A DNA stretch of 64,000 bases, taken from assembly GCA_028693645.1 (NCBI GenBank), contig JAQUUY010000001.1, forward strand, positions 30,318-94,317, given 5' to 3'. The notes beneath the pieces are model-generated. The model worked only from the letters and a program-made list of their open reading frames with translations. It was not told the origin of the DNA and made no database searches. Position 1 is the stretch's first letter. The number at the start of each line of letters is the position of its first letter. The position numbers were made by a program, and so were the translations under genes. This DNA is from Eubacteriales bacterium (GTDB lineage: Bacteria; Bacillota; Clostridia; Peptostreptococcales; Anaerovoracaceae). This document shows, in pieces, positions 25,257 to 56,908 of this stretch.

Positions 25257-25286
25257 AATATCATGAGTACGGGGGAATAAAGGTCA

Positions 25287-43065: not shown

Positions 43066-43111
43066 ATAACAAACAAGCGAATTCGATGTTCCGAACAGCG
43101 AGGTGATAGAA

Positions 43112-44248
43112 ATGGAAAAAATTAAGCTTCTAATCATAAGTGAGGATTCGGAATATGCGGTGGCTCTCAGCAGATTACTCAGCATAAAATATGATTGCTT
43201 TCGTATTGACATCAAATCAGGAAAAACGAACACTGCAAGTATCGAAAAATGCAGATCCGCATTCTATGATTTGCTCCTTTATGACAGGTGCGATGAGGCT
43301 TATGAGCAAAGTCTTTTATCTGAAGATCAATCAAAATGTGTATTACTTACAGAGGAAGAATCCTTCTTCAGGAAAGACGAAAATGACGAAGATTCAAATA
43401 ATAAGAAAGATAAAAAACAAGAGCAACTGATTTATAAGTATGCCGGAGCAGACAAAATTGCTTCTGATTTACAGCTGTTTTATATGGAAGCAACGGGAAA
43501 AACGAAAAAAACTACTTTGGGGACGGGGGCGGAGCTAATCTTGTTTTCAGGAGCGGCCGGAAATGTCGGAAAAACAGCGCTCTGCATTGCAACTGCAAGG
43601 GAATTGGCTGAATTTCATAGAAAAAAAGTACTGCTCTTGTCTTTTGAATCCCCCGAATCGTTTGGTTTTTATTTAGACGAAGAAGGGAAAGGTCGAGGGT
43701 TAAATGAATACTTATACTACTTGTTTGCAAAATATAAACAATATTCTCCGATTGATCCCGCTGCCTTTCTGACGCATGATCGATTTGCCGTTGACTACTT
43801 CCGCCCCGGGAACAGTATAAATGAACTCATCGAGCTGAGCCTTGCCGATTTGAGAGATTTATTAGCTTCCGTAGCCAACTTCAAAGCGTATGAATATATT
43901 TGCTGTGATGTGTCTTGTTTCTCATTAAAAAAGTATTTTGAACTCTTATCTTTGGCAGACAGAATCATTCATATCGACGATGGTTCTCCTCTTTCCATTT
44001 ACAAAAATGAGGCGCTGCTGAATGCATACTATTTAGCGACGGAGGAAGAGAATTCTGATCGCCTGATAAGGGTGAGGAACAAATGGCAAGAACGAAAGGC
44101 GTCTTCTGTTGAAAACAATATAGATTTGTTTATCGAATATGATCCGGAAAGCTTTCGAGCGACGACAGTCGGTCTTGAAATCGAAATGGACCGGTGTTTT
44201 GGATTGGGGGTCAAAAAGCTTGCAGAAAAAATCCGAAGACAGATATGA
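43112..44248 (+). CDS. TadZ/CpaE-like pilus assembly protein (receiver-like N-domain plus ParA/MinD-like ATPase domain)
   Basis: 378 aa from ATG 43112 (RBS GAGGTG). The N-terminus KIKLLIISEDSEY...YDLLLYD resembles a receiver fold. The P-loop is FSGAAGNVGKTALC. The gene sits directly before cpaF. Confidence 0.6.
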   Translation: MEKIKLLIISEDSEYAVALSRLLSIKYDCFRIDIKSGKTNTASIEKCRSAFYDLLLYDRCDEAYEQSLLSEDQSKCVLLTEEESFFRKDENDEDSNNKKDKKQEQLIYKYAGADKIASDLQLFYMEATGKTKKTTLGTGAELILFSGAAGNVGKTALCIATARELAEFHRKKVLLLSFESPESFGFYLDEEGKGRGLNEYLYYLFAKYKQYSPIDPAAFLTHDRFAVDYFRPGNSINELIELSLADLRDLLASVANFKAYEYICCDVSCFSLKKYFELLSLADRIIHIDDGSPLSIYKNEALLNAYYLATEEENSDRLIRVRNKWQERKASSVENNIDLFIEYDPESFRATTVGLEIEMDRCFGLGVKKLAEKIRRQI

Positions 44249-45443
44249 TACCGTAAGTACGCTAAAAGAAATAACCGAAAATGTAAGAGCTGTTATCAAC
44301 AGCAAAGATCAAAAATTGACCGATGCGGAAGTACTTGATTTGATCGAAGCCTTTGTTTTAAAAGACAGTAGAACCCAAGTCTGCTCTTATCAAACGAAAG
44401 GTGATGTGATTAGCAGCGTTTTTAATGCAACAAGAAAAGAATTAGACCTTTTACAACCCTATGCCGATGATCGAGAAGTCAGTGAAATCATGGTCAATGG
44501 AATTGAAGGTATTTTTATTGAAAAGAAAGGAAAGATTGAACGTCTTTCGAAGAATTTCGAGACAAAAGAAGAACTAGAAGAAATTATAAGACGTTTGGCC
44601 GGAAAGGTTCATCGAGAGATAAATGAGCTGAACCCCATTGTTGATGCAAGAATGGAAGATGGCTCAAGAATTCATGCCGTTTACAAAAATGTTGCGCTCA
44701 ATGGACCAATTCTAACGATTCGGCGTTTCCCAGAAAAGAAGATTAGTATGAGCGAGCTCATTGAATATGGAAGTATCACAGAGGAAGCGGCTTTGTTTCT
44801 TAAGCAATTAGTCATTGCGGGCTATAATATCTTCATCTCCGGAGGAACCAGCTCAGGGAAAACGACGTTTCTCAATGTGTTGTCGAATTATATTCCCAAA
44901 GAAGAACGTGTCATCGTCATAGAAGATTCAGCGGAGCTTCAGATTATGGAAATAGAAAACCTTGTGCGAATGGAAAGCAGAAATGCAAATGTACAAGGCA
45001 AAGGAGAAGTTTCAATCCGACAATTGATTAAAGCAAGCTTAAGAATGCGTCCGGATCGCATCATTGTTGGTGAAGTGAGAGGGCCGGAAGTCCTTGATAT
45101 GATACAGGCGATGAATACCGGGCATGATGGATCTCTCTCAACCGGCCATGGTAATTCACCGGTTGGGATGCTGACAAGACTTGAAACGATGTATCTGATG
45201 GCAGCAGAATTTCCGATTGAAGCTATCAGAAATCAAATTGCAGAAGCCATTGATATCATTGTGCACCTCGGTAGAACCCCGGACCGTGGAAGAAAAGTTC
45301 TTGAAATCATTGAACTGGCCGGAATCGAAAATGGAAAAATCAGAGTGAATACCTTGTTTTCTTATACGAATGCCGCAGGCTTAAAAGCCACAGGGAACAA
45401 GCTTTCAAATCAAAGCAAACTGGAACGAAAGGGGATGATATAA
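44139..45443 (+). CDS. cpaF: CpaF/TadA family secretion ATPase
   Basis: Walker A GGTSSGKTTFLN, Walker B VIVIEDSAEL, and a His box GHDGSLSTGHGNS. The start is uncertain: ATG 44139 overlaps the upstream gene by 110 nt, and TTG 44220 follows GGGGG. Confidence 0.9.
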   Translation: MIRKAFERRQSVLKSKWTGVLDWGSKSLQKKSEDRYDTVSTLKEITENVRAVINSKDQKLTDAEVLDLIEAFVLKDSRTQVCSYQTKGDVISSVFNATRKELDLLQPYADDREVSEIMVNGIEGIFIEKKGKIERLSKNFETKEELEEIIRRLAGKVHREINELNPIVDARMEDGSRIHAVYKNVALNGPILTIRRFPEKKISMSELIEYGSITEEAALFLKQLVIAGYNIFISGGTSSGKTTFLNVLSNYIPKEERVIVIEDSAELQIMEIENLVRMESRNANVQGKGEVSIRQLIKASLRMRPDRIIVGEVRGPEVLDMIQAMNTGHDGSLSTGHGNSPVGMLTRLETMYLMAAEFPIEAIRNQIAEAIDIIVHLGRTPDRGRKVLEIIELAGIENGKIRVNTLFSYTNAAGLKATGNKLSNQSKLERKGMI

Positions 45444-45445
45444 GG

Positions 45446-46189
45446 ATGCCTACGTATGATCGATACGTGCTTTCCAAACAAGAAAAACTAAGGTACTTTT
45501 GTATCTGTTGCCCGTTGATAAGCGGTATTTCTTATCTGTTTTATCATAGCATTATATTTTGTATTCTCTTGCCGCTCCTTTCGATACCGGGTCAGCGAAA
45601 GTACGAAGCGTACTTGATCAGCCGTCAAAAAAAAGAATTGTCAAAGCAATTCCGAGATCTTCTCTACTCACTCTCTGCTTCTTTTTCCGCATCAAAGCAG
45701 ATGAAAGAGGCATTGAAGGAATCTTTGCCGGTTTTACTACTCCTTTACGGAGAAAATTCACTCTTGATAAAAGAAATATCACAGATTGTCAGAAAAATGG
45801 AAGAAAGTCGTGATTCGGAAGAATCCTTGCTCTCAGATTTCGCAGAAAGAAGCGCCGATGGAGAAATTCAAAGTTTTGTTGATGTCTATCTTATCTGCAG
45901 AAAATCCGGTGGCAATCTGATACAAGTGATTTCAAAAACAGTGGAGGTATTGATTGAAAAACTGGACATCACTCGGGAAATACAAAAGATGACGGCGCAA
46001 AAACGTTTTGAATCAATGATTATCACGGCAATCCCGCTCTTAATGTTGCTCTTTCTTCAATGTTCCAGCCCTGATTTTACTGCCGTGCTTTATGAAACGC
46101 TCGCAGGTCGGCTGTTGATGACCCTTGCACTTTTGGGAACGGTAGTAGCTTCTTGTTGGAGCAGAAAAATTACGGAAATTGACTTTTAG
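45446..46189 (+). CDS. tadB: TadB-like type II secretion system F-family membrane protein
   Basis: 247 aa with an N-terminal TM helix, a cytoplasmic helical T2SSF-like domain and C-terminal TM helices. Lies 2 nt after cpaF. Confidence 0.7.
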   Translation: MPTYDRYVLSKQEKLRYFCICCPLISGISYLFYHSIIFCILLPLLSIPGQRKYEAYLISRQKKELSKQFRDLLYSLSASFSASKQMKEALKESLPVLLLLYGENSLLIKEISQIVRKMEESRDSEESLLSDFAERSADGEIQSFVDVYLICRKSGGNLIQVISKTVEVLIEKLDITREIQKMTAQKRFESMIITAIPLLMLLFLQCSSPDFTAVLYETLAGRLLMTLALLGTVVASCWSRKITEIDF

Positions 46190-46219
46190 CGATATTCTTA
46201 GAAAAAGGGGGAATCTCAA

Positions 46220-47596
46220 TTGCTGAGAAGCAAGGCTTTTATAAAAAGCGGCATTCAATATTTTGAGAAGCTTGATCGATTTTTACCTTTTGATCTCTGC
46301 GGTAAAAAAGAAAAAATGCAGGAATTGTTCGGAAAGCGATATTGGCGAAAAGATACCGAAAGAATCGTCAAGGAAACTCGTCAAAAAACAGCGGGAGCAT
46401 ATCTGCTTCTTATCAGCCTTCTCCTTATTTTGATTTTTTTCTTTGCAATCTCTGCCTTGCAGCAAGGGGAAGAAGTGAAAACCATTTCAAGGCCGGAGTA
46501 TGGTGAACCGGTCAAAACGGAGCGGCTTTTCGCAAGAATGGAATATGACGGAAAAATTTTGGAGAAAGAAACAAAAGTAAAAGTGCTTCCGCAAGTTCGT
46601 TCAGTCCATGCAACGGAAAAAGCACTTGAACAATTTGAACAGGATTTGGAAATCAAAATTCTTGGGAAAAACAAAGATATCAAACACGTGTGCACGGATC
46701 TTTTCCTGTTTACAAAAGAAGAAGGAAGTGATGTCGCTATAGAATGGTTTTCCAATAAGCCGGAGTTACTTTCTCGAGAAGGAAAGGTTGATACGATTTT
46801 AGCCAAGGGGAAAGAACAAAATGTCGAATTAACAGCCGTGTATTCTTTGGGGGAGATAGAGAGAAAAATCACGTTTCCCGTTCATATTACGGATGGAGAG
46901 AAAGCAAATGATAAAACAACTTTAGAAGAGCGTCTGTCAAATGCAATCGAGAATGTTGAAGAAGGGCCGGCGGTCGGAACGCGCTTGACTTTGCCGAAAA
47001 CTCTTGGTGAAGAAGTCAGGATTCGTTGGATTGAAAAGGAAAAGAACCCTTTACCGGAATTGTTGCTGTTGTTCGTTGTTGTTTTTGGAATCATCTATCG
47101 TCTTCGTTATAAAACCGCAGAAAATGAAGTGAAAACGGATCAGAAAGCAATTTTAAATGATCTTCCCGATTTTACGAATAAATTGCTTCTCCTTCTTTCT
47201 GCAGGGCTTGTAAGCGAATCTGCGATTCGGAAAATCACAACTGATTATAGAAAACGGTGTTCAACAAAACAAAAACCCTTGTACGAAGGCTTTTGTGAGA
47301 TTGAACAACGAATGCAGTTGACAAATGCATCGTTTCTAAAAGAATTTAGTGATTTTGCTCAAAAAAGCGGAGTTAGAGAGCTGATTCGTTTGCAGACAAT
47401 CATTTCCGAAAACATGTACATTGGAAACAGTTTGAGTGAAAAACTTGAAACAGAAGCAGCAATGCTTTGGTTTTATAAGAAGAAGAGCGTGGAGGAAAGA
47501 GGGCAACTTGCGGAAACAAAACTCACATTTCCGCTGTTACTTCAGCTCATAATTCTAATGGTGATTACGTTGGCACCTGTGTTTTTGAAGCTTTAG
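46220..47596 (+). CDS. tadC: TadC-like T2SSF-family membrane protein with a large extracytoplasmic insertion
   Basis: 458 aa. TM helix at aa 58-80, a roughly 200-aa soluble domain, TM helix at aa 279-293, then a T2SSF-like helical domain (ILNDLPDFTNKLLLLLSAGL...) and a C-terminal TM helix. TTG start after AGGGGG. Confidence 0.65.
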   Translation: MLRSKAFIKSGIQYFEKLDRFLPFDLCGKKEKMQELFGKRYWRKDTERIVKETRQKTAGAYLLLISLLLILIFFFAISALQQGEEVKTISRPEYGEPVKTERLFARMEYDGKILEKETKVKVLPQVRSVHATEKALEQFEQDLEIKILGKNKDIKHVCTDLFLFTKEEGSDVAIEWFSNKPELLSREGKVDTILAKGKEQNVELTAVYSLGEIERKITFPVHITDGEKANDKTTLEERLSNAIENVEEGPAVGTRLTLPKTLGEEVRIRWIEKEKNPLPELLLLFVVVFGIIYRLRYKTAENEVKTDQKAILNDLPDFTNKLLLLLSAGLVSESAIRKITTDYRKRCSTKQKPLYEGFCEIEQRMQLTNASFLKEFSDFAQKSGVRELIRLQTIISENMYIGNSLSEKLETEAAMLWFYKKKSVEERGQLAETKLTFPLLLQLIILMVITLAPVFLKL

Positions 47597-47605
47597 GACA
47601 TTGCT

Positions 47606-47809
47606 TTGAATAGTAAAATAAGAAGGGAGAAGTACGGACTCGTAGGTACCGTGCATGAAAAAATGATGAAAAACAGCAAAAAAGGAATGGAAATGGTGCA
47701 GGTGGCAATTTTGATTGCTATTGCAGTGGCTTTAGGATTGATTTTCAGAGAGAGGATAATGGACTTTGTTGATGCGACATTTGACGGGCTGTCCTCTTCG
47801 GGATTTTAA
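47606..47809 (+). CDS. flp: Flp-type (type IVb/class III signal) pilin
   Basis: A short basic leader ...NSKKG is followed by MEMVQVAILIAIAVALGLIF and a short tail, giving a mature size of about 40 aa. The start is ambiguous (TTG 47606 or ATG 47663). Confidence 0.7.
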   Translation: MNSKIRREKYGLVGTVHEKMMKNSKKGMEMVQVAILIAIAVALGLIFRERIMDFVDATFDGLSSSGF

Positions 47810-48090
47810 TGAGTTGCTGCTTTCGTTTCTTCTCTCACTGTAAGACTAAAAAAGGAGCGGTTATGATTGAGGCAGCGTTAGTATTACCTCTGTCGATTTT
47901 TCTTATAATGGGGTTATTTACTCTTGCGCTTCATTATCATGAACAAGCAGTGCAACAAACAGAGGAGTATTGTCAAGTGAGACAAGAAGCAAAGGTAGAG
48001 GGAAAAACCGATTTGCGTGAAGCAGAATTTGTTACGAGAATTGATTTCCTGCAAGAAGTGGTCGACGGAAAGGAAAAGAAAAGTGATTAA
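47809..48090 (+). CDS. TadE-like pseudopilin
   Basis: 93 aa. TKKG/AVMIEAALVLPLSIFL matches the TadE N-terminal motif with Glu at +5. TAATG overlap with flp. Confidence 0.65.
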   Translation: MSCCFRFFSHCKTKKGAVMIEAALVLPLSIFLIMGLFTLALHYHEQAVQQTEEYCQVRQEAKVEGKTDLREAEFVTRIDFLQEVVDGKEKKSD

Positions 48091-49414
48091 GAATAACAAA
48101 AAAGGATCGGTACCTGTCTTTTTGGGAACCATCTTGCTTTCTTTTCTTCTCGTAGTAGCGATTTTGATGGAATCAGCAGTCGGTATCGTAGGGAGAGGGT
48201 ATGCAGATGGTGTTTTGAATCTGGCAGGACGTTCGATCCTTTCCGAATATGACAGACATTTGAAGGAAGACTATGGACTGTTTGCTGTTTTGATGGACGC
48301 AGAAGAAGCAGAAAAAAAGCTGACTTATTATTCGAATGAAAGCTTTGACTCTCATTTTGGATATACCGATTTGTTTTCACTTTCTCTCGAAGAGGTGAGG
48401 GTTGATTTTTCAAGTTACCCATTGAGCAATCCCGATCGCCTTGAAAAACAGATTATGGAATACATGGAGTTCCGAATCGTAAGTGAGGGAATCACGGCAC
48501 TTGATCTGTTGGAAAATCCAAAAAAACTTGATTGCTACTGCGATAAAAAAACAGAAGCAAAGAGCAGCGCCTTGAAAGTGGAGCGTGATTTAAAAAATCA
48601 ACAGATAATAAAGGGGCTTCCTTCCCATGTACTCAAAAATGAGTTTGATTTCACTTCGGCTCTTCCTCAGAACTTTAATATGAAGAAACTGCTTCATATT
48701 ACGAAAGATAGCATCAGTTTGAACCTCTATATACTAAAATGTTTTCGCCATCAATTAGATGACGAAGATTGGAACAATACCTTTTTTGCAAACGAGGTCG
48801 AATATATTTTGTGTGGAAGTGAAAGTGACAGTCGAAACAGAACGCTTGTAAAAGCAAGCTTGCTTGTCTTGAGAACCGGAATTGATCTTGCCCATATTTA
48901 CACTGATCCTCTAAAACGCCAAAGTATTTTGACCGTTGCGGCACTTGTTTTCCCAGGAGCCGCTGCTCCGGCGGCAGCAATTTTGATTGCTATCGGATGG
49001 GCCGCAGCAGAAGCGGCGAATGACCTTGGGCGCCTTGCGAAAGGAGATCGTGTCCCTTTATATAAAACGACTGCTGATTGGATGATTGATCTGGACAGTC
49101 TTCTTGAGAAGAAAGAAGAAAAAACAACCATGAAGAGACAAACTGCCGGAATCGTTATTTTGAAACCGGAATCGACAGGTCTTGATTATGAAAATTATTT
49201 ATTCTTGCTACTTTGTTTTAAAAGCAGAGAAACAAAGCTGTTTCGAATTATGGATTTAATACAGATCAACATGAAAGGAAACTATTATTCCGATTTCCTC
49301 CTATCTCATTGTTACGGCGGAATCGATTTTGTTTGCCGTATTGAACGAAAAAACAGCTTCTTGCCATTCGGTTCCTTGCGAAAAGGAGTTTTTTATGAAA
49401 GTCATGTTTACTAA
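48083..49414 (+). CDS. TadG-like pilus-associated protein
   Basis: 443 aa from GTG 48083, which overlaps the upstream stop (GTGATTAA). The N-terminus NKKGSVPVFLGTILLSFLLVVAILMESAV resembles the TadG-type N-terminal helix, followed by a large soluble domain with an internal hydrophobic stretch. Confidence 0.6.
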   Translation: MIKNNKKGSVPVFLGTILLSFLLVVAILMESAVGIVGRGYADGVLNLAGRSILSEYDRHLKEDYGLFAVLMDAEEAEKKLTYYSNESFDSHFGYTDLFSLSLEEVRVDFSSYPLSNPDRLEKQIMEYMEFRIVSEGITALDLLENPKKLDCYCDKKTEAKSSALKVERDLKNQQIIKGLPSHVLKNEFDFTSALPQNFNMKKLLHITKDSISLNLYILKCFRHQLDDEDWNNTFFANEVEYILCGSESDSRNRTLVKASLLVLRTGIDLAHIYTDPLKRQSILTVAALVFPGAAAPAAAILIAIGWAAAEAANDLGRLAKGDRVPLYKTTADWMIDLDSLLEKKEEKTTMKRQTAGIVILKPESTGLDYENYLFLLLCFKSRETKLFRIMDLIQINMKGNYYSDFLLSHCYGGIDFVCRIERKNSFLPFGSLRKGVFYESHVY

Positions 49415-50222
49415 GTGGAGACGAAGAAAAAGGGGATCTGCTATCGTCGAGGCAGCTTTGTTTCTTCCATTTTTCCTTTTGGCTTTGCTTTCTCTGATCC
49501 TAATCATTCGTTTGGTGAGTGTAGAAGGAAGCATGATGGAAATCTGCACAAAAGAAGCGCAGATAGTAGCGAAGGAAGCATATTTAACGAATTTGCCGGA
49601 GATACCCGAGGGAGTTGAAAAAAACATCGTTGGTGGTTTGGCTCATGGGACGCTTATGAAGCTTCGTATACGCCAAGCGGTAGACAGTAAAGAGAAACTG
49701 CCCTTATCGGAGTTGCGGCTGCAGAGTTTCTTCTATTTGTTTTCGGCACATGAGACAGATTCGCTGATACGACCATCATTTACTTACCAAAGCAGCATTC
49801 CTTTGCCGGGCGGATTTGGGCGAACAATTAAATTTAAACGCGTCTTTTTGTTTCGTGCGTTTGTGGGATCTGTCGGCATGAATTCTGCAATGGGTTTTAC
49901 TGAAATGGAAAAAGAAGAAAGCTCCGAGCTGGTATCTATCTTTCCTCGTGCGGGGAAACGGTATCATAAAAAAAATTGCAAGGTAATTACTGTTTATCCG
50001 ATAGAAACCTTATTAACAAATGCAGTACAGCGGAAATACAGTCCATGTTCACTTTGCAAACCAAATGAGAACGCGTTTGGCAGCAAGGTGTATCTTTTTC
50101 CGGAAAGCGGTGAAGTTTTTCATCGTGAAAATTGTGTGCTTGTAAAACGCTATGTGACTGAAATTGAAAAACAGGAAGCAATCAAGAAAGGTTACAGTCC
50201 CTGTAAATTATGCGGAGGATGA
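49395..50222 (+). CDS. TadE-like pseudopilin fused to two C-terminal H-C-C-C zinc-binding modules
   Basis: 275 aa from ATG 49395 (RBS AAAGGAG). RKRG/SAIVEAALFLPFFLL has Glu at +5. The C-terminus carries YHKKNC-x22-YSPCSLC and FHRENC-x22-YSPCKLC. Confidence 0.6.
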   Translation: MKVMFTKWRRRKRGSAIVEAALFLPFFLLALLSLILIIRLVSVEGSMMEICTKEAQIVAKEAYLTNLPEIPEGVEKNIVGGLAHGTLMKLRIRQAVDSKEKLPLSELRLQSFFYLFSAHETDSLIRPSFTYQSSIPLPGGFGRTIKFKRVFLFRAFVGSVGMNSAMGFTEMEKEESSELVSIFPRAGKRYHKKNCKVITVYPIETLLTNAVQRKYSPCSLCKPNENAFGSKVYLFPESGEVFHRENCVLVKRYVTEIEKQEAIKKGYSPCKLCGG

Positions 50223-50223
50223 T

Positions 50224-50943
50224 ATGTTTAAGCTTGAGGAACTAAAGAAAGAAGAAATTGGCGGACGGCTTGTTTTGTCAATCGAAAACACGAAAGACTG
50301 GCCTCCGGTGTATCAGAAGCGAGTCTTGGAAAAAGGTTGCAAAGGGCTTTTGCAAATGACTTTTCTTGAGATCGAAGAGAATTGCAGGATTTACTATCAA
50401 GTGGATTCCTATAAACCATTCACGGATTACTTAGAGAGTTTGTTTTCGAACAAACGCGAACTTCACTCAAATCCAACAAGAGAAATCCTTCGTATTCTGA
50501 TAGATGTGCTGTCTTGTGTCTTAGATGCCGAAGATTGTTTGCTCTTTGTTGAAGCATTCGCCTTTAACAAGGATACCATCTTTGTCCATATTGATACGAA
50601 AGAAGTGCGGCTTGCCTATTTACCAACAACGAAAGCAGGGCAGACCGGCAATCCTTTTTTGAAAGAGCTGATTGAAGCAATCTCCAACCAATATCAGGAG
50701 GAACAATGGCAGTCTTGCGCTCAAGAATTGCTATGTGAAATCGAGCAAAAGAACAAAGGATCTCTTGAACTCATCAAATGGTTTAGAGAGAAAGCTCGAG
50801 ATTTGCATCTTCGTGGTTGGCCAAACGAAGAACTTGAAAGAAGTGTGGAGGGGGAAGTAGATAATTCCTTTGAAATCGCTGTCGATTGCCCAGAAAAAGC
50901 GGAGAAGAAAAGAAGCGTTTTCTCTTTTGATAAAAGAAAATAA
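50224..50943 (+). CDS. hypothetical soluble protein, last gene of the Tad-like operon
   Basis: 239 aa from ATG 50224 (RBS GGAGGA), starting 1 nt after the upstream stop. No TM helix and no motif recognised. Confidence 0.55.
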   Translation: MFKLEELKKEEIGGRLVLSIENTKDWPPVYQKRVLEKGCKGLLQMTFLEIEENCRIYYQVDSYKPFTDYLESLFSNKRELHSNPTREILRILIDVLSCVLDAEDCLLFVEAFAFNKDTIFVHIDTKEVRLAYLPTTKAGQTGNPFLKELIEAISNQYQEEQWQSCAQELLCEIEQKNKGSLELIKWFREKARDLHLRGWPNEELERSVEGEVDNSFEIAVDCPEKAEKKRSVFSFDKRK

Positions 50944-50944
50944 T

Positions 50945-50966
50945 AAGCCGGGCAAAAGCCCGGCTT
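50945..50966. terminator. bidirectional terminator hairpin
   Basis: AAGCCGGGC-AAAA-GCCCGGCTT, a perfect 9-bp stem. A T-rich tract follows on the minus-strand side. Confidence 0.75.
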
Positions 50967-50992
50967 GATTACGATGTTTGTGATACTTCTGA

Positions 50993-51160
50993 CTAACGAT
51001 CAGTTCTGACCTGTCTTCTTTCGTTCTTTTTTCTGTCTCTGCAATCCTTACATCTTTTTGGTTCGTTATCAAAACCTTTTTCCTTGTAGAACTCCTGCTC
51101 ACCTGCTGTAAACACGAATTCTGCGCCGCAATCCTGACATACGAGTGTTTTGTCTTCCAT
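50993..51160 (-). CDS. small zinc-ribbon protein (55 aa), not in the ORF track
   Basis: My translation: MEDKTLVCQDCGAEFVFTAGEQEFYKEKGFDNEPKRCKDCRDRKKNERRQVRTDR. RBS GGAGGA lies 10 nt upstream. CxxC...CxxC motif. Confidence 0.8.
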   Translation of the reverse strand: MEDKTLVCQDCGAEFVFTAGEQEFYKEKGFDNEPKRCKDCRDRKKNERRQVRTDR

Positions 51161-51424
51161 TGGTTCTTATCCTCCATAATACTTAGATGATTTTTTTTAA
51201 TATTTAAAATAGGATAATGGAGTCGACTTCCAAAATGATGATCGGACCATTGGGTATTTTAAATATCACAACCTAATTATATAGCGGTAGGGACTAATTG
51301 TCTATAATAAAAAGGTAAAATTGTGTATAAATTTTGAAAAATCTCATTATTTAATAATACTCTTGTTTTCTTCGGCTCTTATTGTGACACAATGGCAAAA
51401 CACCTTGCTTTTATAGGGGGCAGA

Positions 51425-51453
51425 TTGTTATTTTTTGCTTGCAATGATATAAT
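51425..51453 (+). promoter_or_regulatory. sigma-A promoter for the 51.5-kb operon
   Basis: TTGTTA, a 17-nt spacer, then TATAAT. The -10 is embraced by the inverted repeat CTTGCA...TGCAAG. Confidence 0.55.
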
Positions 51454-51507
51454 GCAAGGGTCGAAAAAATGTAATCTATTGAAACTGAAAAGTCAAGTTG
51501 GGATAAG

Positions 51508-52416
51508 ATGCTCGGATACATCGTTCCGGATAAGCCGGAATTAAAAATAAAAGAATATGATCTCTATTCCGGTTATTATTGTGGAATCTGCAAATCAATC
51601 GCAAGGAGATATGGGCAAGTGCCACGATTGGTATTGAACTACGATTCTGTTTTGCTTGCCTTGGTCATTTCTTCTCTTTTTGACGAACAGGAAAAGGCTT
51701 CGTTAGAACGTTGCCCCGTACATCCTTTGAAAAAAAGATTGATTGTGGCAGATCAACAGGGGATTGATTATGCAGCGGATATGATGCTCTTACTTGCTTA
51801 TTTTAAAGTACAAGATGATCTTCTCGATGAGCGGAATCTAAAGTCAGGGCTTGCTTCGTTTGCCTTGTCCGGAACTTTTAAAAAACTACTGAAAAAGTAT
51901 CCGGAGAAATGTATAATAGTCGAAGAAAACCTTGAAACGCTACATCGGCTGGAAAAAGAAAATTGTCCCTCTTTGGATCAAGCGGCAGAACCTTTTGCCA
52001 AATTGATGGAGGAAATTTTTGCAGAGAAAGAAGTTTCGCGAACAAAGGAAACCGGCGAAACGCTCAAACGAATCGGCTATCACATTGGGAAATGGATTTA
52101 CCTCATTGATGCGTTTGACGATATCGAAGAGAACAAGAAAAATGGCACGTACAATCCACTTCTTGCCGCTGAGATGAAACAAAAACACCTTGGCGAGAAA
52201 GCGGAAGCAACGAGTGTTGCAGGATTGCGAGAGGAGATACGACCGAGGATTGAATTCAATCTTCTCTACTATCTCGCAGAACTCGGTGCTGCTTGGGAAT
52301 CATTGGACAGAAAGAAAAATCAATCATTGATTGATAACATTATTTACATGGGGCTGTTACGAAAAACGGAACAGGTATTACAGAAAGGAACAACTAAAAA
52401 TGCAGAATCCGTATGA
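51508..52416 (+). CDS. uncharacterised protein (probably DUF5685-type) with isoprenoid-synthase-like Asp-rich motifs
   Basis: 302 aa. N-terminal YCGICKS...RCPVHP, plus QDDLLDE (aa ~102) and DAFDDIEENKKNGTYNPL (aa ~201). Composition suggests an all-helical protein. Confidence 0.6.
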   Translation: MLGYIVPDKPELKIKEYDLYSGYYCGICKSIARRYGQVPRLVLNYDSVLLALVISSLFDEQEKASLERCPVHPLKKRLIVADQQGIDYAADMMLLLAYFKVQDDLLDERNLKSGLASFALSGTFKKLLKKYPEKCIIVEENLETLHRLEKENCPSLDQAAEPFAKLMEEIFAEKEVSRTKETGETLKRIGYHIGKWIYLIDAFDDIEENKKNGTYNPLLAAEMKQKHLGEKAEATSVAGLREEIRPRIEFNLLYYLAELGAAWESLDRKKNQSLIDNIIYMGLLRKTEQVLQKGTTKNAESV

Positions 52417-52972
52417 GGTATTGGGAATCAAAGAGGGAGCAACAAAAGAAGAGATTAAAGCGGCTTATCGCGAACAGGTAAAGAAGTACCATCCGGATCG
52501 TCATCAAGACAATCCTTTGTACGAATTAGCCGAAGAAAAGCTTCAGGAAATCAATGAAGCATACGAAACGCTTACGAAAGATGGCGGAAACAGAACGTAT
52601 CGAAGCGGGACCGCCGGACCGGGTCAAACGCAAGATCTCCGCCAAGTGCGAGTATATATTGATAAGGGAAATCTGGGCGCAGCAGAAGCTGAATTGAATC
52701 GCAGTTCCATCAGAAACGCAGAGTGGTTTTATCTCTCTGGAATTTTATCGATGAGAAAAGGTTGGTATGATGATGCGATAAATAACATTCAGACAGCCTG
52801 CAGCATGGAACCTGCCAATTATGAATACCGAAATGCCATGAATAGCATGATGCAAACCTCGCAGGGCTACAGAACAACAGCCAACAATCGCGGTTACTCT
52901 AATTCGAATGATGAATTATGCAGAATGCTGCAATGTTATTGCTGTGCGGATGCACTTTGTGATTGTATGTAA
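52400..52972 (+). CDS. J-domain protein with a TPR-like middle and a C-terminal cysteine string
   Basis: 190 aa from ATG 52400. J domain YEVLGI...KKYHPDRH. The tail is CRMLQCYCCADALCDCM. Overlaps the upstream gene by 17 nt. Confidence 0.8.
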   Translation: MQNPYEVLGIKEGATKEEIKAAYREQVKKYHPDRHQDNPLYELAEEKLQEINEAYETLTKDGGNRTYRSGTAGPGQTQDLRQVRVYIDKGNLGAAEAELNRSSIRNAEWFYLSGILSMRKGWYDDAINNIQTACSMEPANYEYRNAMNSMMQTSQGYRTTANNRGYSNSNDELCRMLQCYCCADALCDCM

Positions 52973-52987
52973 CTCGTAGGAGAACCC

Positions 52988-53524
52988 ATGATAAGAAAAA
53001 AAAGTCCGGCCGCAAAATTGTCTTTTGGGGGAATCATGTTAGGACTATCATGGATTACCCTGTTTTTTGCTGCCTTCATTCCGGGAATGGAATTAACTCT
53101 TTTTTCGTTGTGTACGTTTTATGTGGTCCTCGTCGTTGGTGTGACATCCGTGGTTAATGGGTGGATTCTATATGCGGCGACCTGTCTTTTGGTACTTGTA
53201 ATGATACCGGACAAAATCGCGATTCTTCCGTATGTGTTTTTCTTTGGATTATACGGGCTTGTGAAGTTTTATATTGAAAGAATCAGGAAAACGCCGATAG
53301 AGTATCTGCTGAAACTCCTATTCTTTAACCTTTCTTGGGGCATCACTATTTTTGTATTTAAGAGTGCCTTTCTATCAAATATTGGACTGCCTGATCTTCC
53401 GGTCGCTGCTCTTGTAGTCGGAGCGCAGTTTATGTTCGTTCTCTACGATCAAATATTAACAAGGCTTTACAGCTATTTTCATAGGCGCTTTGGCCGACTG
53501 ATTGAAGGAAGGATGTTTAGATGA
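52988..53524 (+). CDS. polytopic membrane protein of unknown function
   Basis: 178 aa, about 5 TM helices. RBS AGGAGA. ATGA-coupled to rarA. Confidence 0.6.
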   Translation: MIRKKSPAAKLSFGGIMLGLSWITLFFAAFIPGMELTLFSLCTFYVVLVVGVTSVVNGWILYAATCLLVLVMIPDKIAILPYVFFFGLYGLVKFYIERIRKTPIEYLLKLLFFNLSWGITIFVFKSAFLSNIGLPDLPVAALVVGAQFMFVLYDQILTRLYSYFHRRFGRLIEGRMFR

Positions 53525-54807
53525 TCCCCTTATCGACGCGGATGCGACCGACTGATCTGGATGGTTTTTACGGGCAAGAACACTTTATTTATAAAGGGTC
53601 CTTGCTTTATAATGCAATCAAAAATAAGACCTTTGATTCTGCGATTTTTTTTGGACCTTCCGGCACAGGCAAAACCACACTGGCGCGATTGATTGCGAAG
53701 GAGATGGATTCTGATTTTTATGAACTCAATGCTTCTACCTGTGGAATCAAAGAACTCAAAGAAATTCTTGAAAAAAGCAAGGATCGTTTATTTGGATTTC
53801 AAAAAGAACAGACCTATCTGTACATCGATGAATTTCATCGTTGGAATAAATTGCAACAGGATTCGCTTCTGAAAGCCTTGGAAGAGGGCATCGTTCGTTT
53901 TATCGGAAGCACAACAGAGAATCCATATTTCTCGGTCAACAATGCGATACTGAGCCGCGTTCGTTCTATTTACGAATTCAAAAAACTGAAACCCGAAGAC
54001 CTCTACCTGATTATGGTAAATGCCTTGCAGAACAAAGAAAGAGGCTTAGGAAAACAAGATCTTTCGTTTGAGAAAGAGGCACTTAGGGCACTTTCTGAAA
54101 TGTCAGCCGGTGATGCACGCATTGCCTTGGATACGCTTGGTTTTATCGCAGATAATCTGCCACTCGGGGCGCGGATTGAACTATCCACAATTGGCGAAGC
54201 GATGCAAAAGCAGACTCAATTCTATGACAAAAAAGAAGACAAATATAATTTGTTATCTGCACTTCAAAAGTCGATTAGAGGAAGTGATCCCGATGCGGCG
54301 ATTCATTATCTCGCCCGTCTTCTTGATGGAGGAGCAGACGTCGTGATGGTGGGGCGAAGGCTTCTGGTGATTGCCAGCGAAGATATCGGAATGGCATATC
54401 CTCAGGCAATCAGTATCGTCACTGCCTGCGTGCAGGCCGCACAAATGGTAGGCTTGCCGGAAGCAAGGATTAATCTTTCACAAGCGGTCATCCTATTGGC
54501 ATCTTGTCCTAAAAGCAATTCCACGATTATCGCAATTGATAGTGCCACAAACGATCTTCATAAGAAAAACATCGATGACATACCCAATCATTTGAAAGAT
54601 GCGCATTATGCAGGCGCTGAAAAAAGAGGGCTTGGATTGACGTATCAATACCCGCACGCCTTTGGTGGATATGTGAAACAACAATATCTGCCTGACAATC
54701 TTCACCGCGAAGGGGTGAGGTATTATGCACCGACAGAAAACGGAAAAGAAGGGTCCTTTAAAAGATTTCTTGAAAGTTTGAGAAAGAGTGTGGAACATGA
54801 AGATTAA
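53521..54807 (+). CDS. rarA: replication-associated recombination protein A
   Basis: 428 aa. Walker A GPSGTGKTTLA and a MgsA C-terminal domain. Confidence 0.93.
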   Translation: MIPLSTRMRPTDLDGFYGQEHFIYKGSLLYNAIKNKTFDSAIFFGPSGTGKTTLARLIAKEMDSDFYELNASTCGIKELKEILEKSKDRLFGFQKEQTYLYIDEFHRWNKLQQDSLLKALEEGIVRFIGSTTENPYFSVNNAILSRVRSIYEFKKLKPEDLYLIMVNALQNKERGLGKQDLSFEKEALRALSEMSAGDARIALDTLGFIADNLPLGARIELSTIGEAMQKQTQFYDKKEDKYNLLSALQKSIRGSDPDAAIHYLARLLDGGADVVMVGRRLLVIASEDIGMAYPQAISIVTACVQAAQMVGLPEARINLSQAVILLASCPKSNSTIIAIDSATNDLHKKNIDDIPNHLKDAHYAGAEKRGLGLTYQYPHAFGGYVKQQYLPDNLHREGVRYYAPTENGKEGSFKRFLESLRKSVEHED

Positions 54808-56908
54808 AATCGCGGAGCATGCGGGTTTTTGCTTTGGAGTAAAAGAAGCGTTGGAAAAAACCAAAAAAACGATTGAACAGAACAAAGGAAAAGATATTAA
54901 AATATATACCTGTGGACCTTTAATCCATAACCGGACGGTAACCGGAGAACTGCGTGAGCAAGGGGTGGTCGAAATCGAATCCCCCGCAGAAGCAGAACGG
55001 GGTTCTATCGTGATTGTGCGTTCTCATGGCGAACCGGAACGATTTTACCAACAAGCAAAAGACCGAGAACTTTGCATTGTAGATGCCACGTGTCCTTTTG
55101 TATCGAAAATTCATGATCTTGTGCGAGAAGCCTCCTTAAAAGGGCGTAATGTCATTGTTGTTGGTGATGCCACACATCCGGAAGTCATTGGAACGACAGG
55201 CTGGGCAGGAGATCATTGTCTTGTGATTGATACTCTCGAAATGGCAAAGAAAATAGAGTTGGATCATATCACGCTTGTTGCGCAGACGACGATTACCGAA
55301 GAATTATGGAAAAGCATTGCGGACTGTTTTATGAAAAACAAAGAAGATGTCATTGCGCTTCACACGATTTGCAATGCGACGACAGAACGGCAGAGAAGCT
55401 GCGAAAATCTTGCAAAAGAATCGGATGCTATGATTGTAATCGGTGATCCCAAAAGCGCGAATTCGACTAAACTTTACGAAATTGCATCTAAATACTGCGA
55501 AAAAACACATTTTGTAGACACTCCGGCAGATTTACCATTGAAAGAATTGGCAAAGTGCGATACAATAGGAGTTGCGGCAGGAGCTTCAACTCCTGAACGT
55601 ATAATTAAGGAGGTTATTGCTACCATGAGTGAAATTTTCACTGAAAAAGAATTAAAGTCCCAAGACGCTGCAGTAAATACCGCAGTCGAGGATGACGAAG
55701 AAGAAGAATTTAACATGATGCACGAGTTCATGGAACAGATCGATAAGTCTCTCAGATTGCCAAATCGCGGAGAAATCGTCGAAGGTGAAATCGTACAGGT
55801 CACAAGCAGGGAAATCGTTGTAAATCTCGGATGTAAAAAAGATGGCATCATTCCCAAAGATGAGCTCGTTCTCGAAGGTGAACAGGATCTAAACGTTCTT
55901 TATAAAGAAGGCGATGTGATTCAGGCAAAAGTCATCAAGACAGACGACGGCGACGGAAATATCCTTTTGTCGCGTAAAAAGCTCGAGGTCATAGAGCATT
56001 GGGACGAAATCAATGATGCACTTGACAATAAATTAGTTGTAAACGCGAAAGTCGTCAAAGAAGTCAAAGGCGGCGTCATCGCGATGTACAAAGAAGTCTC
56101 CGGCTTTATCCCGATGTCGCAGCTTTCCGACAAATTTGTCGAAAAAGCAGACGAATTCATTGGAAAGACATTGCCGGTCAAAGTCAGTCGTGTTGATCAA
56201 AAGAGAAACAAGGCTGTATTCTCACACAAAGCTTATCTTGCAGAAGAGAAGCAAAAGAAAGTCCAGGAAATCTGGGATGCTCTCAGTGTGGGAGATGTTG
56301 TTGAAGGTGTCGTAATGCGCTTTACCGATTACGGTGCGTTTGTAGACATCGGCGGACTTGACGGACTTCTTCATATTTCGGAAATTTCTTGGGGCAAGCT
56401 AAAGCACCCACAGGAAGCTCTTGAAATCGGAGAAAAAGTCCAGGTCAAAATCCTGTCAATGAACAGCGAAAAAGGAAAGATCTCGCTTGGTCTCAAGCAG
56501 AACCAACCGGAACCTTGGATGATTATCGATGAGAAATATCAAATCGGACAGGTCATTGAAGGCAAAGTAGTTCAGATCAAAGAATATGGTGCTTTTGTAG
56601 AACTCGAGCCGGGTCTTGATGGACTTGTACATATTTCGGAGATTGCTCACAAGCGTGTTACAAACATTGCTGATGAACTTACTGTCGGACAGGAAGTTCA
56701 GGCTAAGATCCTTGAAATCGACAAAGAGAGAAGAAGAATCAGTCTTTCTATCAAAGAAACCATTGAGCCTTCCCTTTTCGATGAAGCAGCAGAAACTGTT
56801 GAAAATGCAGTAGAAGCAGCAACAGATGCGGTGAAAGAAGTAGCTGAAACCGTAGCTGATAAAATCGAAGAGATCGTTGAAGATGTCAAAGAAAAGATCG
56901 AAGACTAG
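54797..56908 (+). CDS. ispH: bifunctional 4-hydroxy-3-methylbut-2-enyl diphosphate reductase / ribosomal protein S1 fusion
   Basis: The N-terminal ~280 aa is IspH (HAGFCFGV, conserved Cys). It is followed by four S1 repeats (GEIVEGEIV..., GDVVEGVV..., GQVIEGKVV...). Confidence 0.92.
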   Translation: MKIKIAEHAGFCFGVKEALEKTKKTIEQNKGKDIKIYTCGPLIHNRTVTGELREQGVVEIESPAEAERGSIVIVRSHGEPERFYQQAKDRELCIVDATCPFVSKIHDLVREASLKGRNVIVVGDATHPEVIGTTGWAGDHCLVIDTLEMAKKIELDHITLVAQTTITEELWKSIADCFMKNKEDVIALHTICNATTERQRSCENLAKESDAMIVIGDPKSANSTKLYEIASKYCEKTHFVDTPADLPLKELAKCDTIGVAAGASTPERIIKEVIATMSEIFTEKELKSQDAAVNTAVEDDEEEEFNMMHEFMEQIDKSLRLPNRGEIVEGEIVQVTSREIVVNLGCKKDGIIPKDELVLEGEQDLNVLYKEGDVIQAKVIKTDDGDGNILLSRKKLEVIEHWDEINDALDNKLVVNAKVVKEVKGGVIAMYKEVSGFIPMSQLSDKFVEKADEFIGKTLPVKVSRVDQKRNKAVFSHKAYLAEEKQKKVQEIWDALSVGDVVEGVVMRFTDYGAFVDIGGLDGLLHISEISWGKLKHPQEALEIGEKVQVKILSMNSEKGKISLGLKQNQPEPWMIIDEKYQIGQVIEGKVVQIKEYGAFVELEPGLDGLVHISEIAHKRVTNIADELTVGQEVQAKILEIDKERRRISLSIKETIEPSLFDEAAETVENAVEAATDAVKEVAETVADKIEEIVEDVKEKIED

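Follow-up and report, generated by a model that had tools for sequence, protein, structure and literature searches.

We report here a conserved module of three genes, found in hundreds of Clostridia species and encoded on the forward strand of the window (the whole stretch of DNA analysed, 64,000 nucleotides from a Eubacteriales bacterium), which brings together a protein predicted to adopt the fold of class I isoprenoid synthases, a J-domain co-chaperone ending in a string of cysteines and a polytopic membrane protein. Gene 1 (51508-52416, 302 aa) belongs to the Pfam family DUF5685 (PF18937), gene 2 (52400-52972, 190 aa) encodes a class C J-domain protein, and gene 3 (52988-53524, 178 aa; hereafter G3) encodes the membrane protein, which is without a Pfam family. 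The trio is a real module, conserved far beyond chance, and we regard it as one functional unit whose products are made in fixed proportion through translational coupling. It constitutes an undescribed system, open to experimental test, and our best guess for its function, a tentative one, is that the trans-IDS-like enzyme alkylates (prenylates) the terminal cysteine of the J-protein tail.

The case for a module comes from gene neighbourhoods. The J gene stands directly after the DUF5685 gene in 78 of 80 species-level genomes, and G3 is next in order in 70 of the 74 genomes with room for it; a reciprocal scan of metagenomes, which started from the J-protein tail, found DUF5685 upstream in 60 of 62 cases and G3 downstream in 65 of 71. 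When the genes of the 80 loci were clustered, the only families common to most of them were DUF5685 (78 loci), the J-protein (71) and G3 (66), the next family being present in 24. The start of the J gene overlaps the DUF5685 stop codon in 65 of 78 loci, the overlap being exactly 17 nt long in 46, and order, orientation and overlaps are kept in 70/74 genomes, at identities as low as 36%, while the flanks vary from clade to clade. The co-occurrence on which the initial annotation had made its proposal depend is borne out across Clostridia, where the three genes are found together, in order and mostly overlapping, and the idea that three unrelated genes lie side by side by chance is effectively refuted by these neighbourhood data, the changing flanks and the concurring reciprocal scan included. 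Among the variable flanking genes, envelope and lipid functions recur (a PgsA-like gene in 19 loci, and also Asp23, SPOR-domain and acyl-CoA ligase genes), and IspH adjoins the trio in the window's clade.

In the window, all the gene coordinates and junctions that had been annotated were recovered: gene 2 begins at an ATG at 52400 (a start at which the homologues begin MQNPYE) and overlaps gene 1 by 17 nt, a 15-nt gap separates genes 2 and 3, with an AGGAGA Shine-Dalgarno sequence ahead of gene 3, and gene 3 runs into rarA through an ATGA overlap. The remaining features of the region are local ones, outside the conserved unit. The rarA/mgsA gene (53521-54807, forward strand), encoding an AAA+ recombination factor (Pfam MgsA_C, E 5e-62, and AAA), had been presented as linked to the trio and turns out to lie downstream of it in only about 9 of 80 related loci, being a neighbour in the closest clade only. 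The sigma-70-like promoter candidate (51425-51453, forward strand), thought to be shared by the three genes, is indeed there, with a -35 element TTGTTA (51425-51430), a spacer of 17 and a TG-extended -10 element TATAAT (51448-51453), and agrees with the consensus at 10 of 12 positions; taken alone, this match is weak, because 12 promoter-like sites were observed in 50900-55000 and shuffled sequences have a mean of 9.0. The inverted repeat described around the -10 element (51438-51458; arms CTTGCA at 51438-51443 and TGCAAG at 51453-51458) exists as well, with a length of only 6 bp, which is within chance. In an alignment of nine upstream regions, neither the promoter nor the repeat was conserved in the eight closest relatives, and no conserved regulatory element was seen; given its short arms and lack of conservation, the repeat is probably fortuitous. 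Rfam gave no match within the window, and a defence-system origin of the trio was rejected, with no PADLOC match.

The product of gene 1 matches the DUF5685 profile over its entire length (positions 1-272 of 272; E 6e-91, 305 bits, cut-off 26.7), as do all 54 of its diverse relatives. This family comprises 4,742 clusters at 50% identity and appears limited to anaerobic Clostridia. The AF2 model of the protein (pLDDT 85, pTM 0.86) was compared with the PDB using Foldseek, and the top 50 matches were all trans-IDS or MoeN5 prenyltransferases (best values: TMq up to 0.64, prob 1.0, E about 1e-3), in agreement with the likeness to class I isoprenoid enzymes that had been proposed. At the sequence level, the link to trans-IDS is below significance: among the 54 members, DUF5685 is the sole Pfam match, with neither PF00348 (polyprenyl_synt) nor the ComQ model found at E<=10, and a PDB profile search with gene 1 returned noise only. 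Nevertheless, the prenyl-diphosphate-binding-type motifs noted previously can be placed with hhalign, in which gene 1 is collinear with E. coli IspB (E 0.09, sub-significant and in register; the comparison with IspA, E 0.38, is uninformative). The first Asp-rich motif (D103-D104-x-x-D107, at the end of helix 84-108) falls on the FARM, DDVVD in IspB, and the second (D201-A-x-D204-D205, followed by xxxN/D209, in the stretch LGKWIYLID201AxDD205) on the SARM, with a compact spacing of 98 residues between the two.

In 398 DUF5685 members, residues D103, D107, D201, D205, N216, E149, C25, C28 and C69 are conserved at 99-100% (within the first motif, D103 at 100%, D104 at 74% and D107 at 99%), which therefore argues that the active site is intact, not vestigial. 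The D201/D205/(D/N)209 triad, with its i, i+4, i+8 periodicity, is similar to the NSE/DTE motif known from terpene synthases. The second Asp of the SARM is replaced by A202 (Ala in 99% of the members), Y198 in the preceding stretch W196-I-Y198-L-I-D201 is 98% conserved, and DUF5685 lacks the Gln that Trp prenyltransferases conserve immediately ahead of the SARM (PMC13290415). The invariant Ala and the absent Gln together suggest that the acceptor site is altered from those of IPP synthases and Trp prenyltransferases alike. Based on the predicted structure, gene 1 belongs to the class I isoprenoid-synthase superfamily, from whose other members it has diverged while retaining the putative Asp residues of the Mg2+/diphosphate cluster. 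An elaboration at the N-terminus, formed in the model by a helix plus a beta-hairpin, carries a putative Cys3(His) site (C25, C28, C69, H72), whose three Cys are invariant and whose fourth candidate ligand varies (His in 82%, Asn in 12% of the 398 members); this apparent ligand set is a family-specific gain of DUF5685. The long members of the family (335-409 aa) contain low-complexity insertions and, in a search for Rosetta-stone fusions, no J domains. The DUF5685 positions which track the type of J-protein tail (A or B, see below) were also sought by mutual information; the top positions follow clade splits only and were left unused, because they are inseparable from phylogeny.

Gene 2 encodes a J domain with its HPD motif (residues 3-62, nucleotides 52406-52585; Pfam DnaJ, E 2e-19), whose H31, P32 and D33 occur in every one of 33 homologues. 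Past this domain come a G/S/N-rich linker, one TPR with a capping helix (about residues 104-150) and a GYR..RGY segment; the C-terminal half has TPR profile matches in the PDB, where the Cys tail has no sequence match. The HscB models align with no more than the J domain, at scores far under the cut-off, and the HscB C-terminal helical domain is missing; no isc genes adjoin the trio. The cell's DnaK is encoded in the window, at 23315-25204, together with GrpE and DnaJ. The protein ends in an acidic, Cys-rich tail (residues 174-190, CRMLQCYCCADALCDCM, forward strand 52919-52969) with six cysteines (C174, 179, 181, 182, 187 and 189) and the terminus CDCM. This cysteine-string architecture, correctly recognized at the outset, generalizes to the family: 157 homologues have 3-9 Cys (mean 6.5) in their last 20 residues, and in 155 of them the final Cys is followed by 0-1 residues, even though the sequences differ greatly from clade to clade. 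In the same 20 residues, there is a mean of 3.0 Asp/Glu versus 0.2 Lys/Arg, for a net charge of about -3. In 60 of 78 J-proteins, Cys is confined to the tail. Tail positions C174, C179, C182, D184, C187, D188 and C189 are invariant in 33 homologues, the spacing and neighbours of the cysteines are well conserved within each clade (e.g. CECxGGDLIxCC), and tail types A and B share the core C-x2-C-[AS]-D-x2-C-[DE]-C. Trp is absent from type A tails, including that of the window, and Cys is the sole universally conserved nucleophile. The J homologues are 62-86% identical (among the 120 matches listed), against 51-73% for full-length DUF5685 homologues.

G3 had been described as a five-TM protein; our prediction gives six helices, with both termini rich in Arg and Lys, so that a six-helix N-in/C-in topology is more likely. 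Its invariant residues (K93, E97, K109 and D154) are placed near the cytoplasmic face. The best AF2 model has a pLDDT of 79.5 and the other four 50-70, one of the five being confident, and the sole confident Foldseek matches of this model are TmRibU chains (TM 0.56-0.62, prob 0.94-1.0, with weak E values of 0.08-0.6), so the predicted fold is weakly ECF-S-component-like. None of 31 G3 members matches a Pfam family, those of the S-components included, and the conserved neighbourhood of the trio holds no ECF genes. Given its size (about 180 aa) and the original five-TM assignment, G3 was also considered as an ICMT or a CPBP CaaX protease and rejected, with no Pfam match and with Foldseek returning ECF S-components as its only confident matches; this unlikeness leaves no CaaX-like processing pathway evident.

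In the mechanism that we tentatively favour, DUF5685 would bind and ionise an allylic prenyl diphosphate, with a cysteine thiolate as acceptor, at the very C-terminal end of the J-protein whose gene overlaps that of the enzyme. A zinc ion in the Cys3 site may activate this thiol in the manner of farnesyltransferase, MetE and MetH, and the basic pocket which in true synthases binds IPP could draw in the acidic tail. Once S-prenylated, the J-protein would move to the membrane, beside the six-helix G3 with its charged residues near the cytoplasmic face, and its HPD-containing J domain would recruit the cell's DnaK to a membrane-bound client, making it a functional analogue of the lipidated cysteine-string proteins of eukaryotes. 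It is conceivable, if somewhat doubtful, that this would be the first bacterial case of protein S-prenylation, with a trans-IDS-fold Zn-thiolate enzyme lipidating the Cys string of a co-chaperone and turning it into a membrane-tethered recruiter of DnaK. With similar reserve, the S-prenylated J-protein might be seen as a prokaryotic counterpart of CaaX/Rab prenylation and of the cysteine-string protein combined, in a housekeeping role across Clostridia. In favour of prenylation are the neighbourhood data, the conserved Asp motifs and Foldseek matches of the enzyme, the constant position of the last Cys in a tail that holds the only cysteines of most J-proteins, the precedent of ComQ, PalQ and ChrPC, and, as context, the DnaK, GrpE and DnaJ genes of the window and the envelope or lipid genes near the loci. 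Several observations count against prenylation: the acidic tail is unlike known lipid-anchored segments and closer to a metal site; the clade-wise conserved Cys spacing and flanks suggest a folded metal-binding knuckle; 1:1 translational coupling to a substrate would be unusual for a catalyst; G3 is unlike ICMT and CPBP; and the sequence match to trans-IDS is sub-significant. Moreover, the trans-IDS-like peptide prenyltransferases characterised so far all target Trp, and none Cys (PMC13290415).

The initial annotation, whose suggestion that the first protein lipidates or otherwise modifies the tail is still a hypothesis, also named a metal or Fe-S site as an equal alternative, and the acidity of the tail suits such a site just as well. 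An unmodified, metal-binding tail is a possibility that we take seriously while holding it to be improbable as it stands. The tail would bind Zn or an Fe-S cluster, and the Cys3 site of DUF5685 would be a second metal site. As for the roles of the proteins, it is about equally doubtful that the J-protein and DnaK are dedicated to maturing or holding DUF5685, in the way that HscB and HscA serve IscU; the J-protein could instead, with no better prospects, be a metallochaperone like SlyD, with its Cys/His/acidic tail, or share with DUF5685 a cluster that bridges both proteins. J-proteins with Cys metal sites are common (the DnaJ zinc fingers, HscB, Dph4, DnaJ-Fer). A Cys-rich, acidic tail almost without basic residues, the Cys spacing conserved within clades and the core shared by types A and B all fit such a site, while a ligand set in which three Cys are fixed and the fourth position varies is classic for Zn or for a [4Fe-4S] cluster that leaves one iron free; additionally, DUF5685 is seemingly restricted to anaerobic Clostridia, and a stoichiometric complex would suit the translational coupling. 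Metal binding nevertheless leaves unexplained the isoprenoid fold of the partner with its intact Mg/diphosphate site, the location of the last Cys 0-1 residues from the C-terminus in 155 of 157 tails and the membrane protein in the unit; the number and positions of the cysteines, at 3-9 per 20 residues depending on the clade, are looser than in typical cluster motifs, the resemblance to HscB stops at a J domain below cut-off, and the tail found no PDB sequence counterpart.

Alternatively, DUF5685 might make or process a membrane isoprenoid lipid (by chain elongation, head-to-head coupling, cyclisation or hydrolysis of a prenyl diphosphate), which we judge rather unlikely; it is just as unlikely that the J-protein then brings DnaK to fold, stabilise or regulate DUF5685 and that G3 binds, flips or receives the product. 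The class I fold and the catalytic Asp motifs, including the NSE/DTE-like triad, the predicted, weakly S-component-like (i.e. small-ligand-binding) fold of G3, and the lipid genes recurring nearby, with IspH adjoining the module in the window's clade, all fit a small-molecule product, and the action of the plant DnaJ-like Orange protein on phytoene synthase is a precedent (PMC5025653). With such a product, however, the Cys tail at the terminus, the most striking of the conserved features, and the Cys3 site of the enzyme would be left without a function, the polar residues conserved in G3 appear to lie at the cytoplasmic helix ends and not in the outer ligand pocket of S-components, and the G3 fold match is itself weak, with E values no better than 0.08 and a single confident model. 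A last alternative, very improbable, is signalling of the ComQXP kind, in which the tail would be prenylated, cut off and exported to act as a pheromone or RiPP-like peptide, and G3 would be its exporter or its receptor. The order of enzyme, overlapping gene and membrane protein does parallel that of comQ-comX-comP (PMC4008528, PMC5331326), but the "precursor" would be a fully conserved J-domain/TPR protein, better conserved than the enzyme, neither a kinase or regulator nor a protease or ABC exporter belongs to the conserved unit, the setting is of the housekeeping type, and, where ComX varies with the pherotype, the tail stays conserved from one species to the next.

The initial annotation spoke of an undescribed module, and we likewise found no literature on the trio, with the qualification that gene 1 already has a Pfam entry as DUF5685. 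The sole mention of DUF5685 found is its listing in C. difficile R20291 by an in-silico study of 2022, and no mention of PF18937 was found; our search also returned nothing published on cysteine-string J-proteins of bacteria, or on Cys prenylation in bacteria by trans-IDS-like enzymes. If DUF5685 modifies the J-protein tail, prenylation of protein cysteines would no longer be restricted to eukaryotes, the trans-IDS-like prenyltransferases, now sought as biocatalysts, would gain a new acceptor chemistry, and a route of Clostridia Hsp70 to the membrane would be shown. If the tail binds metal, the trio would be a new Hsp70-dependent system for metal or Fe-S handling in anaerobes without HscBA. 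Either way, a family with thousands of members gains a fold, a probable active site and two obligate partners, in organisms that include gut commensals and pathogens.

Compared with known systems, DUF5685 shares with IspA, IspB and HepT (PF00348) the predicted fold and the FARM/SARM-equivalent Asp residues in register. It differs from the PF00348 synthases in having no significant sequence match to them, a D-A-x-D-D SARM, the compact motif spacing, an additional N-terminal CxxC...C..H hairpin module and an obligate linkage to a J-protein. The J-protein resembles those of the HscB-HscA-IscU, CbpA-CbpM, DjlA and Or-PSY systems in being a class C J-protein specialised to a client or location and encoded with a partner; unlike in all of these, the partners are an isoprenoid-fold enzyme and an S-component-like protein, and a Cys string is present at the terminus. 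G3 shares with ECF S-components such as RibU a length of about 175 aa, a predicted set of six helices and an inferred N-in/C-in topology, and departs from them in having its charged residues on the cytoplasmic side, no family match and no linked ECF module.

As for eukaryotic lipidation, gene 2 shares with DNAJC5/CSP-alpha, which recruits Hsp70 to the membrane, a J-domain HPD motif and a dense Cys string. The string of DNAJC5 is central, has hydrophobic/basic flanks and is palmitoylated by DHHC enzymes, whereas that of gene 2 is C-terminal and acidic, comes after a TPR and has an enzyme of the isoprenoid fold as its partner; the homology between the two proteins is shown for the J domain only. 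The placement of the last J-protein Cys within 0-1 residues of the end is like that in CaaX/Rab prenylation, and the C-x-C-hydrophobic and CC endings resemble the CXC and CC of Rab proteins. A Zn-thiolate chemistry of the FTase type is plausible for DUF5685, in spite of a predicted class I synthase fold unlike the alpha-alpha barrel heterodimer of FTase and GGTase-I/II, and the trio, in contrast to the CaaX pathway with Rce1 and ICMT, is without an ICMT- or CPBP-like partner.

The closest parallel is with ComQ, PalQ and ChrPC, trans-IDS-like enzymes which prenylate adjacently encoded peptides, with a terminal acceptor residue being required in PalQ (PMC13290415). As in ComQ/ComX, PalQ and the P domain of ChrPC, the gene for an enzyme of about 300 aa with an isoprenoid-synthase fold precedes that for the candidate substrate, which adjoins or overlaps it, the SARM/IPP site is altered, and the acceptor would be C-terminal; the enzyme gene adjoins the J gene as the genes of those enzymes adjoin those of their substrates, with the J-protein as the presumed substrate. 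The differences are that the acceptor would be Cys and not Trp, with no Gln ahead of the SARM, that the candidate substrate is a 190-aa co-chaperone and not a short secreted peptide, that DUF5685 carries its extra Cys3(His) site, and that the module is class-wide and housekeeping-like and not a quorum-sensing or natural-product locus. Overall, the first two genes would make up a pair of the ComQ/ComX type, in which the substrate would be a whole co-chaperone and the acceptor a Cys in place of a Trp.

The DUF5685 gene (gene 1; 51508-52416, + strand, 302 aa), the J-protein gene (gene 2; 52400-52972, +, 190 aa, with its ATG start at 52400) and the membrane-protein gene (gene 3; 52988-53524, +, 178 aa) form a module, stoichiometrically co-expressed and co-inherited. 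In a scan with one genome per species, at least 597 species had a DUF5685 relative, and the best 80 (36-73% identity) were analysed. ORF clustering of these 80 loci placed DUF5685 in 78, the J-protein in 71 and gene 3 in 66, the next commonest family being MutS2 (24/80). With HMMs, the J gene lies directly 3' of DUF5685 in 78 of the 80 loci, and gene 3 comes after the J gene in 70 of the 74 loci with room. Reciprocally, a metagenome scan that took the TPR-plus-tail half of type B J-proteins (one of the two main tail types) as its seed found DUF5685 upstream in 60/62 loci with room and gene 3 downstream in 65/71, so that the co-occurrence proposed in the initial annotation is borne out. Counted from the conserved M.NPYE, the J gene begins before the end of the DUF5685 stop in 65 of 78 loci, and in 46 the overlap is exactly 17 nt. 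The genomes with trio loci include Anaerovoracaceae, Oscillospiraceae, Hungateiclostridiaceae, Ruminiclostridium, Lutispora, Brassicibacter, Petroclostridium and Clostridium sensu stricto, and the flanks comprise several unrelated contexts: DnaE-MtrB-thioesterase-PgsA-like genes upstream with MutS2 and acyl-CoA ligase downstream, Asp23 upstream, a convergent ClpB downstream, or Tad-pilus genes upstream with SPOR-rarA-IspH downstream. A chance adjacency of the three genes is very unlikely. The exceptions to the DUF5685-J pairing are a contig end and locus L065 (6001-7811), the sole one with room where the J gene does not come after DUF5685; there the DUF5685 ORF starts late (229 aa, without the CxxC region), has a lactate/malate dehydrogenase-like gene after it and may be a decaying copy.

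In the window, the gene 2 start indicated by its homologues gives the 17-nt overlap with gene 1; a longer, TTG-initiated ORF at 52331 was rejected as the start, since 33 homologues begin with MQNPYE. The 15-nt gap between genes 2 and 3 carries AGGAGA, and the gene 3 stop shares an ATGA overlap with the start of rarA (53521-54807, +; Pfam MgsA_C, E 5e-62). The two overlaps, the 15-nt gap and a promoter-like TTGTTA-17-TATAAT site had been described previously and all agree with the ORF map and sequence; the site (51425-51453, a sequence match) also has a TG extension. The inverted repeat said to embrace the -10 (CTTGCA/TGCAAG) is present, but it is only 6 bp long, and upstream-region comparison found no counterpart of it or of the promoter even in the closest relatives, in several of which an upstream same-strand gene abuts DUF5685. 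Likewise, rarA does follow the trio here, but lies 3' of it in only about 9 of the 80 loci, each of which belongs to the 10 closest. We regard rarA, promoter and repeat as incidental to the trio. In this genome the trio needs its own promoter, because a gene on the opposite strand, for a 55-aa treble-clef zinc protein (50993-51160, -; Pfam zf_Tbcl, E 8e-26), sits just upstream; a terminator-like hairpin lies at 50945-50966.

Directly after rarA lies a gene for IspH (LytB) fused to four S1 RNA-binding domains (54788-56908, +, 706 aa); IspH, the last MEP-pathway enzyme, is thus two genes from the isoprenoid-fold DUF5685. In 11 related loci a member of the same family comes after the module, with no gene between it and the J gene in L029 or gene 3 in L058. 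Upstream, a same-strand run (43103-50943, +) resembles a Tad/Flp-type pilus cluster, with a T2SSE ATPase (44139-45443, +), DUF5702 (48017-49414, +), a TadE-like N-terminus (49329-50222, +) and DUF6382 (50164-50943, +); in the closest relatives, too, the trio has related families (c20-c23) ahead of it. A CDP-alcohol phosphatidyltransferase gene (PgsA-like, 186 aa) lies immediately upstream of DUF5685 in 19 loci (L008, L014, L015, L018-L021, L026, L027, L033-L035, L037, L040, L041, L043, L044, L066), preceded by 4HBT thioesterase, the TRAP protein MtrB and DnaE; this phospholipid-synthesis neighbour recurs in one clade only. In 13 loci, in one clade (L025, L036, L042, L046, L048, L052, L055, L067, L068 and others), clpB is convergent right downstream of gene 3, a second Hsp70-system component adjoining the module, which may be coincidence. 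Elsewhere in the window, an ORF run (5784-12337, +) resembles, by eye, a histidine-utilisation cluster (ammonia-lyase-like, 508 aa; urocanase-sized, 676; formimidoyltransferase-like, 302; imidazolonepropionase-like, 429; cyclodeaminase-like, 205).

Gene 1 matches Pfam DUF5685 over its full length (E 6e-91), a family of 4,742 clusters at 50% identity (exhaustive HMMER search, E<=1e-3), and no sequence relationship beyond it was found in Pfam, NCBIfam or PDB. Its AlphaFold2 model (45 homologues as input) is a confident one (pLDDT 85, pTM 0.86), all-alpha save for a beta-hairpin at residues 63-81, and the top 50 Foldseek matches in the PDB are all trans-isoprenyl diphosphate synthases (hexaprenyl, octaprenyl, FPP, GGPP, solanesyl) or the prenyltransferase MoeN5, the best being E. 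coli octaprenyl diphosphate synthase (TM 0.64, probability 1.0). The profile alignment with E. coli IspB (E 0.09) is below significance alone, yet collinear, placing YAAD..L.Y.KL.D103D..D107E over the first Asp-rich motif (FARM, LLHDDVVDES) and LGKWIYLID201A.DD205 over the second (SARM, LGTAFQLIDDLLD). By predicted fold and motif register, the protein is thus a member of the class I isoprenoid synthase superfamily, in keeping with the initial annotation. Among 398 members, D103, D107, D201, D205, E149, G194 and N216 are 99-100% conserved, D/N209 closes an i, i+4, i+8 acidic triad, and the SARM has an invariant Ala as its second residue. Three cysteines are also invariant: C25 and C28 form a CxxC where the first helix begins, and C69 belongs to the hairpin. 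Position 72 is His in 82% and Asn in 12%. We conclude that gene 1 probably encodes a live enzyme of this superfamily with a predicted Mg/diphosphate site, an apparently altered second-substrate site and an added, predicted metal site of three cysteines and an exchangeable ligand. Conservation begins at residue one (residues 1-13, 51508-51546, M-x-G-Y-x-x-P-x-K-P-E-L-K; Gly3 97%, Tyr4 95%); this stretch, unstructured and of lower confidence in the model, may form a lid or interaction peptide.

Gene 2 encodes a bona fide class C J-domain protein (DnaJ domain, E 2e-19, HPD invariant), which shows no homology to the cysteine-string protein (CSP) beyond the J domain. The domain is followed by a low-complexity G/S/N linker, a single TPR with capping helix (genuine, as its profile matches are consensus TPR proteins, DNAJC3 and MamA), a conserved GYR..RGY segment and the tail, CRMLQCYCCADALCDCM. 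In 157 homologues, the final 20 residues contain a mean of 6.5 Cys, 3.0 Asp/Glu and 0.2 Lys/Arg, and in 155 of these proteins the last Cys either ends the chain or has a single residue after it; 60 of 78 J-proteins have no Cys outside this acidic string. The two main tail types, ...QCYCCAD.LCDC[IFMV] and ...WC[SA]DCCCEC.GGDLI.CC, share by eye a core C-x2-C-[AS]-D-x2-C-[DE]-C. A DnaK partner exists, since a canonical hrcA-grpE-dnaK-dnaJ operon (21677-26441, +; Pfam HrcA, GrpE, HSP70, DnaJ+DnaJ_CXXCXGXG+DnaJ_C) lies about 26 kb upstream, and the cysteine-tail protein is therefore a second, specialised J-protein.

Gene 3 encodes a small polytopic membrane protein of no described family: it matched no Pfam family and has only nine detectable word-indexed homologues, but a neighbour-derived HMM recovers it in most related loci. 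Five transmembrane segments had been assigned to it; the best AlphaFold2 model (pLDDT 79.5, the other four being poor) has six helices. Arg and Lys are plentiful at both termini and in the loop between helices 4 and 5, suggesting an N-in/C-in topology by the positive-inside rule. Foldseek gave high-probability matches only to the riboflavin ECF S-component TmRibU (four chains; TM 0.56-0.62, E 0.08-0.6). The invariant polar residues K93, E97, K109 and D154, intact in the window, are found in helices 4-6 towards their cytoplasmic ends, and would thus better suit docking of a cytosolic partner than an outward ligand pocket. ICMT or CPBP protease identity was rejected, as there is no likeness to either. 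Residue 52 in helix 2 (consensus ...iiE.G.k...), Glu in 90% of 60 homologues, is Val here (53141-53143).

How the three proteins connect we can only infer. The reading that we favour, tentatively, takes the J-protein tail as acceptor substrate of DUF5685: the Asp/Mg site would ionise a prenyl diphosphate, and the attack on it would come from a Zn-activated terminal thiolate of the tail, which, being acidic, would fill the basic pocket used for IPP in canonical synthases. The product would be a lipid-tethered J-protein acting with the gene 3 protein at the membrane, a functional analogue of the eukaryotic cysteine-string protein, and there is a realistic, if minor, chance that it is the first system known to S-prenylate a protein in bacteria. 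The main evidence against prenylation is twofold: the tail is acidic, and its spacing is conserved clade by clade. Both fit a metal or Fe-S site in the tail, a possible, if doubtful, alternative that the initial annotation had allowed; in the enzyme, three cysteines plus a variable ligand are equally typical of a [4Fe-4S] cluster in anaerobes. Rather unlikely is a small-molecule isoprenoid enzyme with the J-protein as its private chaperone and the gene 3 protein binding the lipid product, for which plant Orange with phytoene synthase is a comparable pair, but which leaves the tail without explanation.

For prenylation of the tail, the closest precedents to DUF5685 with its adjacent J gene are ComQ, PalQ and ChrPC, trans-IDS-like enzymes which prenylate peptides encoded alongside (review PMC13290415); PalQ requires a terminal acceptor, since the residue must insert deeply (PMC13290415). 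All characterised members of this kind target Trp (PMC13290415), and a Cys-directed, protein-directed member would therefore be new. Unlike them, the DUF5685/J pair has neither an acceptor Trp nor a Gln before the SARM; unlike canonical trans-IDS, DUF5685 has an altered SARM and no sequence-model match, so that it falls outside both groups. A ComX-like pheromone role is very unlikely. In line with the initial annotation, which knew of no experimental work, no paper on the module was found in the searched literature, which names DUF5685 once, in a domain list for hypothetical proteins of C. difficile R20291. The known kinds to which we relate the trio are specialised J-protein/partner operons and trans-IDS-like modifying enzymes; the module itself is widespread, wholly uncharacterised and mechanistically suggestive.
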